A DNA stretch of 64,000 nucleotides. It comes from Nitrospira sp. (GTDB lineage: Bacteria; Nitrospirota; Thermodesulfovibrionia; UBA6902). Under the pieces are notes generated by a model. The model was not told where the DNA came from. It did not search any database and saw nothing but the letters and a program-made list of their open reading frames with translations. Position numbers and translations under genes: made by a program. Shown piece by piece: positions 53,590 through 57,636 of the stretch. Location of the stretch: NCBI GenBank assembly GCA_016784355.1, contig JADHUV010000004.1, positions 48,201 to 112,200 on the forward strand, read 5' to 3'. How positions within the stretch are numbered: position 1 is the stretch's first letter; the number at the start of each line of letters is the position of its first letter.

Positions 53590-53609
53590 GAATTTTTAAT
53601 CTTATCTAT
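53590..53609. repeat. 20-bp direct repeat GAATTTTTAATCTTATCTAT, left copy
   Basis: It has a perfect 20/20 identical copy at 57136-57155. Confidence 0.8.
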
Positions 53610-54177
53610 CTATATCCTCCCTGTCCTTTAATTCCTGCATAGCCGGCACACTTCGGTCCTTTTTACTTTTGCCTGTGTAATAGTGATTGTTCATCAGACA
53701 ATAGGCCTGAAACACTGCTCCATATTTCAGGTATGCTGATTTCAGATAATAAAGAAACCGTGTTCGATCCTTGCGTTTCTGTATATGTTCTTTCTCTCAT
53801 TGCCTCTTGATGTAATGGGATAAAACGCCCCCGGATACTCTATACGTAAAGGTCTTGCCATTCCATGCCCCCCAGACATTTAGTTGAATAATTATAATGG
53901 CAAGTTATTATTAATTAAAATATTCCGTTATATATACTGAAGAATGGAGATCTGACACCACCCGCAGGTTGCCAGCACAGCATATTATGTATCCCTTCTA
54001 GGGTACAAAAACATGAGGGGCGAGTGGGAGGATCTGAATACCCGTCCACCTCAGCGTAATGAGCTGAAGTTCGGTGCGGATCATGTCTGGACTGGATCGT
54101 ATAATGCGATTATTGCAGAGAAAAAGCAGCATAAGAAGTGTTTGCTGAGTTAAGAGATTTATGACTTATGTAATTGC

Positions 54178-54209
54178 AGGGCGGTGTCGAAAGGCATCGC
54201 CCTTTTTTT
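54178..54209 (+). terminator. Rho-independent terminator
   Basis: Hairpin GGGCG-GTGTCGAAAGGCAT-CGCCC followed by TTTTTTTA. Confidence 0.65.
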
Positions 54210-54431
54210 ACGCTTAAAATGCCTAATCTGTGCGCAAGGAGCGACGAATTCCTAAAAAAAGTAGTAGTTATGAGCGAATTATGACTGCTATTGATATCGG
54301 AATACGCTATAAGCTAAACTGTAATCAATTGCACTGCTTAATGTGATAATTTCTCGCAAAAGCCAGATATTATGGTATAATATTACATTAAGCGACATTC
54401 TAAGGATAAAATATCTCATTAGGAGAATAAA

Positions 54432-55778
54432 ATGATTATAAGCTTCTCTGTTGAAAACTGGACGTCCTTTAAAGATAAGGCTACGTTCTCAATGGTAGCC
54501 AGTCGAGAGCGCCAACATGGAAAAAGAGTCCCTAAGGTTGGAAAATATCAGACAAGGATTCTACCTGTAGCTGCTATATACGGGGGAAATGCATCAGGAA
54601 AGACAAATCTCTTTAAAGCCCTGAAATTCACTAAAACACTTGTTACCAGAGGCACTCAGCCTGACAGTTTAATTCCAGTTGAGCCTTTCCTTCTTGACTC
54701 AAAGTCTCATGACAATGCCGTACGATTTCAGTTTGAGCTTCTAATTAAGGAAGAGGTTTACGAGTTCTCTTTTGCTGTAACTCGACATGTTGTTTGCGAA
54801 GAGAAACTTGTACATGTCTTAAGCACTCGAGAAAGAGTGTTATATGATCGCAAAGCTGACAAAATTATACTTGATAAAAAGTTGGAGAATCTCCCGTTCC
54901 TTGATTTTGCTTTTAATGGAACGCGTGACAATCAACTTTTCTTGACAAACTCCGTTTCGCAGAAAGTCGATATCTTTAAGCCTGTATATGATTGGTTTAA
55001 TGATACATTAAAATTGATAGCTCCTGATGACAGGTTTGAACCTTTTGAACAGTTTCTTGATGAGGATCACCAATTATTCTCAATAATGAACCTGATGATA
55101 CCTCAACTTGATACTGGAATTTCTCGTATCGGCGGTGAGGAAATTCCTTTTGAGAATATCAATCTTCCCCCAGCTCTAAAATCAGATCTGCAGGAGAACG
55201 TTAAGGAGGGCAAGCCTGTTCGATTGCTCGCTCAGCCAATCAATGAGCAGCATATTATAACAAGAAGAAATGGCAAACTAGTTGCGAAAAAATTAGTTAC
55301 TTATCACCAAAGACTAGATGGTAGCGAGGCTCAGTTTGAAATGAGACAAGAATCAGATGGGTCGCAAAGAATAATTGATTTACTCCCAGCGTTTTTAGAT
55401 ATATCTTCAAGTAATTCTACGAAAGTCTATGTGATTGATGAGATAGATAGGAGTTTGCATTCGCTACTCATAAGAGAACTGCTTGAGGGTTACTTATCCA
55501 AATGCTCTACTGAAACTCGTGCTCAAGTATTATTTACTACGCATGACCTTTTGTTGATGGATCAACAGTTACTAAGGCGTGACGAGATGTGGATAGTGGA
55601 ACGTGAAACAACGGGTGGATCTAACTTGCTTTCGTTTAGTGAGTATGAGGGCATTCGATACGACAAGGATATTCGCAAAAGTTACTTACAAGGTCGCTTA
55701 GGCGGGATTCCAAAAATATCTCTCTGCGATACACAGAGCAATCAGTGCTTTGAAGAGATAGGTAGAGGAAATAAATAG
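54432..55778 (+). CDS. AAA/ABC-type ATPase, AbiLi/RloA-like (AAA_21 family)
   Basis: Walker [10 protein letters not shown], Walker [13 protein letters not shown], and TTHD. Confidence 0.7.
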
Positions 55779-56377
55779 TGCCTGCCAGAAGAAAGTTCAG
55801 TAGACCCTACGGAACTCTTCCATATCGCAGGCTATTTATTCTTTCTGTTGAGGGAAGCAGAACAGAACCTCAATACTTTAATTTGTTCAACGATAAACAT
55901 TCTTTCATATAGGTGTCTTGTATTAATGGTGGTACCGATAGCGCTCCTATTCATGTGCTTGAAAGAATGAAGAAGCGTTTAGCATCAGTGACGTTAAAAA
56001 AAGGTGATCAAGCATGGTTGGTCGTAGATCGTGACCAGTGGAGCGATGAACATTTGAGAATGCTTTTTGACTGGTCTATGGAGAGTGAAAAATATGGTTT
56101 TGCTTTGAGCAATCCAAAATTTGAATACTGGTTACTTCTCCACTTTGAAGATGGCAATGGCGTTAATACTTCTACTGACTGTTCAACTCGACTTGCTGTG
56201 CACCTTCCTAATTACGACAAAAAAATCAATAAAGGGCACTTTACTGATGAGTTAATTAATGACGCTATCAGAAGAGCTCGAAGTCGAGATAATCCACCCT
56301 GTGAAAAGTGGCCTAGAAATACTGGAACAACAGTATATAAATTGGTTGAGCTTATTCTGAATATTCAGAATAATTAA
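55778..56377 (+). pseudogene. RloB/AbiLii-like gene with an in-frame TAG at 55910-55912
   Basis: GTG 55778 reads ...ILSVEGSRTEPQYFNLFNDKHSFI-[TAG]-VSCINGG...LVVDRDQW...ALSNPKFEYWLLLHF. The RloB motifs are continuous across the stop. Confidence 0.6.
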
Positions 56378-57132
56378 AAACTTGATGAAGATGTGTTTTT
56401 ATGTTGCACCGGTTTATTTGCAAAGTGTATTTAAATACTGACACTAACGGTCAATAGCAGTCTGTTACCTTAGGGTATGGCCACCTTAATCACGATAAAT
56501 ACCCTCAAAGACCTCGGCTTCAACGATGCCGGAATTTTCAATATCCCCATAGCGAATTACGATGCCTGGCTTCAGGATCTCATTGATACCATAAGCCTTC
56601 GCCTGGAAAGTGGGTGGTGTCAAGGCTCCATTCTTCAGGACTGGAATGGGCAAATGACGCAAAAATAGCACAATATTAGTCAATCCATATTTTTTGATAT
56701 AACTCCCAATTGTGTATTTTAAAGTAATTCCTTCCGAGGAATAATAAAATCTTTTTTATGACACTTTCTGCTGTAGACAAAAAGATCCAACAGCTCACCC
56801 GCAATAAAAGATATTATAAATTCTGGATCCCTGCCTACCGGACAGGCAGGCGGGAATATAGGGGTCAGCCAGAAGCAGTCAGTCCCGTAGTCTGTTGAAC
56901 GAGAATCCAGTCTAATTGGATTTCTCTGGATGCCCGATAAAGAATTCAGCTCCATCCTTAACCACCCACTGCATTGTGGATAAAGTGGGGAATTACTCTG
57001 ATTCCAACTGGGGAATTAATTTGAAACTACCTGGGGATTTATGCTGGAACTCGACAGCAACACCGGATTTGAAGTCCGGGTGCTCACAGTTGGCGCTGCA
57101 GGGATTCTGATGATAGCCCTGTGGTTAAGGGT

Positions 57133-57636
57133 CTACGAATTTTTAATCTTATCTATTATTGAGGTAGTAGAAAGCCCCTCAGAAAAAGGCAGCGAGCGGA
57201 CGTCTTCTACCAGATCATTGCCCACGATATCTTCCCGTGCCCAGTCTCCGCCTTTTACAAGCACATCAGGCCTAACCTGTTTAATTAGTTCATAAGGGGT
57301 TTCTTCATTGAATATAACCACATAATCAATGGCAGAAAGAGCTGCAAGCACCTCAGCCCTCTCCTGCTCAGGGACAATGGGTCGTCCGGGTTTCAGGCGT
57401 GAGACCGACTCATCTGAATTAAGACCTAATACAAGGATATCGCCGATATCTCTGGCCTGTTGAAGGTAGCGCACATGGCCTGCATGAATAAGATCAAAGC
57501 AGCCGTTTGTAAAGACAACCTTGCCTCCGTCTCTTCGACGAGCTTCAATAATTGCGCTGATTTTTTTTATGGGCGTTATTTTTGAATAGCTCATATTCTT
57601 TTGTATGATATTAATTATATATGGGAAGAAAAGCAA
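57133..57636 (-). CDS. D-glycero-beta-D-manno-heptose-1-phosphate adenylyltransferase-like cytidylyltransferase (RfaE domain II)
   Basis: VVFTNGCFDLIHAGHVRYLQQAR nucleotidyltransferase HxGH motif. Confidence 0.75.
   Translation of the reverse strand: MLFFPYIINIIQKNMSYSKITPIKKISAIIEARRRDGGKVVFTNGCFDLIHAGHVRYLQQARDIGDILVLGLNSDESVSRLKPGRPIVPEQERAEVLAALSAIDYVVIFNEETPYELIKQVRPDVLVKGGDWAREDIVGNDLVEDVRSLPFSEGLSTTSIIDKIKNS
57136..57155. repeat. 20-bp direct repeat GAATTTTTAATCTTATCTAT, right copy
   Basis: Identical to 53590-53609. It abuts the stop codon of the 57133..57636 gene. Confidence 0.8.

Follow-up and report, generated by a model that had tools for sequence, protein, structure and literature searches.

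The window analysed here is a 64,000-nt stretch of contig JADHUV010000004.1 (positions 48,201 to 112,200; assembly GCA_016784355.1, Nitrospira sp.), and the element in question is a 3527-nt islet at window positions 53610-57136, which carries an AbiL-type phage-defence gene pair between an hgcB-like ferredoxin gene and a heptose-pathway gene. A perfect 20-bp direct repeat marks each border of the islet and forms the end of a longer, one-sided region of similarity that derives from the ends of both neighbouring genes. The sequence supports an interpretation of these repeats as the attachment sites attL and attR. Insertion mediated by an integrase, which was then lost or had been supplied in trans, is the favoured explanation, with a probability of roughly 0.55. 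In this reading, the islet is a decayed mobile island of an ordinary kind, with a phage-defence pair as cargo and no recombinase left. An initial annotation, made from the letters of the DNA alone, had called the islet AT-rich; the direction is correct and the difference is mild, with a GC content of 0.40 compared to 0.45-0.46 in the flanks.

Repeat anatomy at the islet borders

The borders are formed by the following features, given by window position.

53303..53581, plus strand: hgcB-like 2x[4Fe-4S] ferredoxin gene with Fer4 Pfam matches; its native 3' end lies within the duplicated junction
53556..53609, no strand: left att-like repeat (attL), consisting of the hgcB-like 3' end, the spacer GTGT and a relic of the heptose-gene end, with its core at 53590-53609
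57104..57156, no strand: right att-like repeat (attR), consisting of a diverged hgcB 3' relic (..PCG + TAA), the spacer GGGT, TCG TAG and the core at 57137-57156
57133..57594, minus strand: D-glycero-beta-D-manno-heptose 1-phosphate adenylyltransferase gene (rfaE domain II type / HldC), 153 aa, with its ATG at 57594; intact

The perfect 20-mer GAATTTTTAATCTTATCTAT has two copies in the 64-kb window, at 53590-53609 and 57137-57156. The initial annotation had placed the left copy correctly and the right copy at 57136-57155, 1 nt to the left of its true site. No third copy exists in the window even when 3 mismatches are allowed, and matches appeared in 0 of 100 shuffles. With ~0.0025 exact 20-nt repeat pairs expected in 64 kb from base composition, a chance origin of the pair is rejected, in agreement with the earlier statement that a 20/20 match is improbable by chance.

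The similarity extends beyond the 20-mer to the left only. A repeat search carries it to 42 nt at 83% identity, and blastn to 54 nt at 81% (53556-53609 against 57104-57156). When the 20-mer is excluded, the 70-nt left flanks align with a score of 16, while shuffled sequences average 6.9 and never exceed 15, with 0 of 5000 reaching 16. To the right of the 20-mers, 14 of 60 positions are identical, which is the random level and amounts to no similarity. The 34 nt of the repeat outside the perfect 20-mer are ~30% diverged, and the distribution of differences (0 of 20 in the core vs 7 of 22 adjacent to it) has a probability of ~5e-4 to 1e-3 under uniform divergence. This sharp identity boundary, as read from the alignment, points to a crossover or to a core that requires identity.

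The reading frames show what the repeated segment is. The right 20-mer encodes the last residues of the heptose protein, IDKIKN, together with 2 nt of a Ser codon, and lies 1 nt from the TAG stop (57133-57135). It had been described as abutting the stop of a gene at 57133..57636; the proximity is real, but rather than merely abutting the gene, the right copy is its coding end. The protein's C-terminus fits the family pattern STxxIIxKIK, and its assignment to the heptose pathway is borne out by a TIGR02199 score of 192.4 bits, above the cut-off of 181.5. The left 20-mer begins 8 nt past the hgcB-like stop codon and, on the minus strand, reads I-D-K-I-K-N-S followed by a TGA stop (53586-53588), 4 nt from the hgcB-like TAA (53579-53581). 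On the same strand, the right copy reads I-D-K-I-K-N-S followed by TAG.

The differences beside the core respect both frames. The hgcB 3' relic in the right copy ends ...CCC TGT GGT TAA, compared to ...GCC TGC GGG TAA in the native gene, and the spacer is 4 nt long in both. In the hgcB frame, TGC>TGT and GGG>GGT are synonymous, A>P is the sole non-synonymous change and TAA is kept. In the heptose frame, TCC>TCG is a synonymous Ser change and TGA>TAG exchanges one stop for another through two bases. The 7 differences in the 22 nt beside the core therefore comprise 2 + 1 synonymous changes, a 2-base stop swap, 1 spacer change and 1 non-synonymous change. Because stop codons, spacing and amino acids are kept in both frames, the two copies represent homeologous, once-functional junctions that diverged in separate lineages. 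Since the relic stop in the left copy lies 4 nt from the hgcB TAA, the ancestral hgcB-like and heptose genes were convergent and 4 nt apart. The frames thus identify the repeated segment as a duplicated junction of two convergent genes, and the islet sits within the last 27 nt of the heptose gene, which takes its final residue and its stop codon from the core's islet side. Repeats are present at both borders, one of them in the 3' end of an intact, conserved gene. No further hgcA or hgcB remnant was found in 56378-57140 beyond the relic of ~54-88 nt.

This pattern bears on an origin in situ, in which a long target-site or tandem duplication would have arisen during the insertion of foreign DNA and then decayed neutrally. 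Direct repeats do flank an insert, and the remnant of a Y1-transposase gene, described below, adjoins the left repeat. Such an origin is nevertheless very improbable: the non-functional left 20-mer has 0 changes, compared to 7 of 22 in the non-functional right relic (P ~5e-4), the changes keep stops and amino acids in both frames, unlike neutral decay, and there are no terminal inverted repeats next to the direct repeats. IS200/IS605-type Y1 transposases are not known to make target duplications. Target-site duplication is rejected, as the segment is at least 54 nt long, is ~30% diverged outside the core, shows selection-like changes and has no abutting inverted repeats. The initial annotation had proposed either attL/attR or a target-site duplication; the first stands, on the repeat in a gene's 3' end, the one-sided homology, the restored Ser and stop, the AbiL cargo and the lower GC, and the second falls.

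The islet is not an assembly artefact, because its junctions (left, right or both) recur in independent assemblies: ENA ERZ24794644 NODE_914, NCBI/JACKQG contigs L021 and L036, and several Logan contigs. The host lineage, an uncultured one within Nitrospirota, is known from metagenome-assembled genomes (MAGs; assemblies GCA_014382155.1 / GCA_014384865.1), and wherever one of its available contigs spans the site or extends to it, the islet is there. The exact 20-mer has 37 matches in JGI metagenome contigs. The host organism accounts only for L021 and L036, both with the islet, and the other 35 lie in unrelated contexts, as do 3 matches in viral contigs. The 20-mer is thus not a common motif, a possibility that had been named as one that would undo the islet reading.

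Insertion model and competing explanations

One-sided homology is the attL/attR geometry expected if the element's own site, attP, carries the 3' end of its target. From this geometry we infer a circular intermediate, a position for the crossover, an enzyme and an order of decay events. Before insertion, the hgcB-like and heptose genes would have been convergent, with 4 nt between their stop codons, and the predicted empty site reads ...GCCTGCGGGTAAGTGTTCAG-GAATTTTTAATCTTATCTAT-TATTGAGGTAGTAGAAAG... The incoming circle, with a predicted junction of ...CCCTGTGGTTAAGGGTCTAC-GAATTTTTAATCTTATCTAT-CTATATCCTCCCTGTCC..., would have carried beside its core ~35-70 nt copied from the equivalent convergent junction of a related former host, a captured attL such as imprecise excision leaves. 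One reciprocal exchange of the Campbell type, placed within the 20-bp core at the very 3' end of the heptose gene, would have produced a left junction of native hgcB end, core and element DNA, and a right junction of element DNA, foreign hgcB-end relic, foreign Ser and stop, core and native heptose gene. The heptose gene stays intact because the element supplies Ser and stop. The recombinase would then have been lost, or would never have been on the islet and acted in trans, and in later or earlier events the Y1-transposase gene would have shrunk to 62 codons and abiLii gained one nonsense codon. The result would be the present immobile, att-flanked islet, which resembles a cis-mobilizable element (CIME). 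A foreign origin of the cargo is suggested by its lower GC and by the relatives of AbiLi in unrelated phyla and mobile settings.

Several observations weigh against this integrase-mediated insertion. One is the lack of a recombinase. Across the frames of the islet's non-coding arms, Pfam and PHROGs revealed no integrase or resolvase, either as a domain or as a remnant, and neither a tyrosine nor a serine recombinase gene was recovered inside the islet from open reading frames (ORFs) and stop-to-stop fragments searched against the same two collections. The arm scan took ORFs and stop-to-stop fragments of at least 26 aa from 53582-54431 and 56378-57140, the longest in each, with a few of the shortest excluded, and Pfam, NCBIfam and PHROGs returned nothing for them but a piece of a Y1 transposase. 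A concatenated query of 40 fragments (1697 aa) had no match in a set of 5.8 billion proteins; this negative is weak because ORFs of 46, 61 and 78 aa that are gene-called on public contigs were also missed. In the window at large, no integrase appears in the Pfam tables for ~6.8-64 kb or for the 300-aa ORF at 915-1817; below 6.8 kb, a 356-aa ORF at 4291-5361 is without a Pfam match, and smaller ORFs were not included. Furthermore, non-synonymous sites of the conserved motif IIxKIK account for 14 of the 20 core positions, so perfect core identity is less improbable than the uniform-rate figure. The core also abuts a truncated gene, the Y1 remnant, an arrangement closer in appearance to an illegitimate junction than to an evolved attP. 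Finally, the searched collections, which hold no close relatives, yielded neither an empty site nor a circular junction, nor a further copy of the element, and the convergent hgcB/heptose arrangement is absent from 3 distant HgcA loci and 1 heptose-gene locus.

The relatives at hand are distant. Identity to the next-best heptose protein is 74% at most, and to the next-best HgcA 48%, so no genome is near enough to show an empty site. The contigs that carry HgcB, AbiLi or the heptose protein all fit an occupied site, and when they are counted per size class, none is left over as a candidate for an empty one. The HgcA scan of the genome collection gave 3 loci at 40-48% identity, with no heptose gene, arsS or AbiL nearby, and the best heptose homologue on a long contig (68% identity) is followed by a transglycosylase gene, not by hgcB. 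Because no relative has the convergent arrangement, the postulated related former host is unobserved.

The check for recombinase remnants in the arms, proposed with the initial annotation, recovered solely the following.

53677..53861, minus strand: Y1-transposase pseudogene (IS200-like, Y1_Tnp + DnaA_C type), first ~62 codons, with one frameshift

This 62-codon 5' piece, the only recombinase-like remnant, is cut right after NHY, the start of the HUH motif. It matches by phmmer at 2e-6 against 1.8 billion representatives, the matched proteins carrying PF01797, and by tblastn at ~1e-12 in two frames; a further match of its tail is weak (E = 0.3). The IS200-like Y1 transposase family is not known to produce such repeats, and an integrase, if it was on the islet, would have been lost.

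The same negative results speak for a single crossover of circular DNA with no dedicated recombinase. In that explanation, a RecA-type or short-homology exchange would have used the captured junction of ~55-90 nt and been resolved in the 20-mer, the one block without mismatches. What the two sites share is host sequence in a diverged copy and not a compact palindromic core, the core abuts the truncated Y1 gene, and the 20 identical nt come near the shortest length at which homologous exchange is efficient. Such an event would be rare, however, because 20 bp of identity within ~80%-identical DNA is a very poor RecA substrate. The absence of an integrase from a decayed 3.5-kb remnant is weak evidence, and the phased 23-nt repeats near the core would be left without a role. 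A recombinase-free crossover is unlikely, though it keeps some weight. Its extension, under which the islet would be no dead remnant, is more doubtful still: a recombinase-independent 'homing' in which a small defence cassette with a captured junction re-inserts in related lineages by short-homology Campbell recombination and regenerates both convergent genes with every insertion.

The conservation of the core motif can also be read as evidence that no crossover took place in the 20-mer. Two homeologous junctions could have been juxtaposed when a chromosomal segment from a relative was transferred and joined illegitimately, truncation having left one junction with 27 nt of the heptose gene and its counterpart with ~60 nt of hgcB, and the 20/20 identity would then reflect conservation of IIDKIKN. 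Synonymous sites make up just 6 of the 20 core positions, homologues conserve the motif, the two relics have diverged as orthologues would, and the left boundary lies inside a truncated gene. This history would nonetheless require two independent illegitimate breakpoints that leave the genes intact and the relics in register, whereas the Campbell model gives the same structure from one event. Moreover, synonymous differences affect 2 of 3 codons in the adjacent hgcB relic vs 0 of 6 in the core. Juxtaposition of this kind is improbable, and integrase-mediated insertion remains the favoured reading.

One further feature is consistent with a dedicated recombinase. Three phased 23-nt direct repeats of the form (G/C)TGGGGA(A/T)TTA... 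occupy 56985..57051 on the plus strand (period 23 and score 63 in Tandem Repeats Finder, TRF), with motif starts at 56985, 57008 and 57031. Their distance from the right core is 86-150 nt, towards the element, and they may be iterons or recombinase arm-type sites. No similar motif occurs on the left arm of the islet.

Comparison with known elements

Elements that insert in the 3' ends of protein-coding genes and provide a substitute end include phage 21 and e14 in icd and ICESt1 and ICESt3 in fda. The islet shares with such integrative elements and prophages a crossover in the last codons of a housekeeping gene, a diverged synonymous end given by the element, and one-sided attL/attR homology. 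In contrast to them, its substitute is 1 codon and a stop, followed by the antisense 3' end of the convergent neighbour, and it has no integrase. An element that carries contiguous former-host DNA beside its core would be explained, by inference, as a product of the imprecise excision seen in specialised transduction (lambda gal/bio type), except that here neither the former host nor the complete element has been observed.

The closest analogy is with CIMEs, the remnants of streptococcal integrative and conjugative or integrative and mobilizable elements (ICEs and IMEs), which keep attL and attR and have lost the genes for integration and transfer (PMC5704250). The islet likewise is small, carries accessory cargo and is flanked by putative attL and attR sites, both kept without integration or transfer genes. 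It differs from CIMEs in having no cognate ICE or IME and no integrase in the window or the searched collections, and may by analogy be called CIME-like. Unlike the streptococcal examples, its host is an uncultured Nitrospirota MAG, and its repeat is in part a diverged copy of two convergent gene ends. AbiL has been grouped with PARIS as a system that pairs an ABC ATPase with a TOPRIM nuclease (PMC13064643). Like AbiL/PARIS-like systems, the islet has an overlapping operon of AbiLi and AbiLii, with relatives on prophages and near insertion sequence (IS) elements; unlike them, its abiLii is broken by a TAG at codon 45.

The islet would record that a defence pair entered an uncultured, little-sampled Nitrospirota lineage at an attachment site in a protein-coding gene. 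Its scar is unusually legible: with a native and a foreign version of each convergent gene end, a single genome is enough to tell which way the event went and of what kind it was. For annotation, the sequence past the hgcB-like stop should be recognised as a relic of the neighbouring gene. Should recombinase-independent homing prove true, it would offer defence islets a cheap, integrase-free route among relatives; unless it does, no new mechanism or long-standing question is opened.

The AbiL pair, other islet contents and the surrounding window

The defence cargo consists of two genes.

54432..55778, plus strand: abiLi, ABC/AAA_21 ATPase, 448 aa, full length; Pfam AAA_21 2.4e-37, PADLOC AbiLi 4.1e-77
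55778..56377, plus strand: abiLii (RloB/TOPRIM-like), 199 codons; Pfam RloB 2.8e-29, PADLOC AbiLii 2.1e-24

The proposal that an AAA-ATPase and an RloB protein form an AbiL-type pair is borne out by the PADLOC matches. The pair had also been called decayed, which holds for abiLii, with its one TAG, and not for the full-length AbiLi. AbiLi scores 130 bits for Pfam AAA_21 (cut-off 27), and its motifs are all readable: Walker A GNASGKT, signature SDGSQR, Walker B VIDEID and H-loop TTHD. Its gene has its own AGGAG ribosome-binding site and a promoter-like -10 element, TGGTATAAT. The start codon of abiLii overlaps the abiLi stop. Despite clear homology and this overlap, the partner ORF is not intact, being split by a single in-frame TAG at 55910-55912, codon 45, which aligns with an R/H column of the homologues and separates an N-terminal Glu-containing segment from the DxD segment. 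Apart from the TAG, abiLii is ~60% identical to its homologues and keeps every invariant residue, and the TAG is common to all assemblies examined. It is a single, recent nonsense mutation, and the putative effector AbiLii is probably not made in its present form. No sign of TAG read-through or pyrrolysine decoding of abiLii was seen, though no test was aimed at either. Inside abiLi (55141-55261), NCBI/JACKQG contig L009/L021 departs from the window at 15 positions in its last 120 nt, after a perfect match up to 55140; the metagenome in question may hold another abiLi allele, ~12% diverged, or the contig end may be chimeric.

AbiLi has hundreds of homologues of the same length, 65-75% identical, in unrelated phyla, with hosts that include Desulfobulbus, Planctomycetota, Chlamydiia and Magnetococcales. 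Related AbiL pairs are found in a prophage between replication genes and integrase/terminase, beside an IS21 helper gene, and as a bare two-gene insert between housekeeping genes. No direct repeats were found around another two-gene AbiL insert (L070). DNA homology to the closest AbiL locus ends at the gene borders, 54401-56349. The clade is a typical horizontally moving defence cassette.

The AbiL pair is enclosed by further features of the islet.

53937..53963, no strand: left arm of a 27-nt inverted repeat, 24/27 match
54013..54153, plus strand: 46-codon ORF with no family match and no evident Shine-Dalgarno motif
54178..54209, plus strand: intrinsic-terminator-like hairpin with T-run, 11-bp stem with 7 GC pairs; strong
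56612..56638, no strand: right arm of the 27-nt inverted repeat, 24/27 match

The inverted repeat encloses the 46-codon ORF, the terminator and the AbiL pair; its alignment score is 21, whereas none of 300 shuffles scored above 17, and it is unexplained. It raises the possibility of a nested event, compatible with the other explanations, in which the block of AbiL and the 46-codon ORF (53937-56638) arrived as a non-autonomous cassette inside an older att-flanked remnant. The 24/27 match is significant by the shuffle test, and the arms bracket exactly the terminator, promoter and AbiL block. A nested cassette is rather unlikely all the same: no target-site duplication was found in the sequence beside the arms, the arms have no further copies in the window, in viral contigs or in the loci retrieved from other organisms, and the DNA shared with the closest AbiL locus ends at the borders of the genes.

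The small ORF and its own terminator, reported in the initial annotation at much the same positions, both exist, and the coding status of the ORF is unsupported. The 65-aa minus-strand ORF reported there exists as well and has no match among Pfam, NCBIfam or PHROG families. No coding or RNA signal was found in 56378-57103, Rfam and tRNA searches gave nothing at threshold, and RNA folding of the islet arms is unremarkable, with z-scores of -1.2 to -2.2. Neither non-coding arm matched plasmids by blastn. Logan contigs from several runs end at shared positions within the islet (~53860-53867, 54010, 56513-56518 and 57000-57027), including the start of the Y1 remnant and the 23-nt repeats, which hints at k-mers common to other places in the genome or community.

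The gene next to the islet had been named hgcB, a name that does not hold at the NCBIfam equivalog level. The HgcB_ferredoxin model gives 73.3 bits against a cut-off of 99, and the neighbouring HgcA_corrinoid model 156.8 against 275, so that 'HgcB-like' is the safer term. The hgcA/hgcB-like genes (51172-53581) directly follow an ArsS arsenosugar radical-SAM gene (394 bits), and the cap-helix-like motif reads NVWCSAGK. By sequence, this region looks like an HgcAB-like paralogue cluster and not like bona fide mercury-methylation genes.

Elsewhere in the window, a 153-nt unit is repeated at 28708-29534 in 5.4 tandem copies (94% matches, TRF score 1498), with partial copies near 22579, 24428-24496, 25135, 26116-26164 and 34532-34623. 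It matches no Rfam family at the gathering threshold, and a 42-nt stretch of it recurs at 86% identity in an unrelated JGI metagenome contig, L034. Finally, the minus strand of 8312-19735 holds a cluster resembling type II secretion and type IV pilus systems, with a secretin, T2SSF, two T2SSE ATPases and N_methyl pilins.

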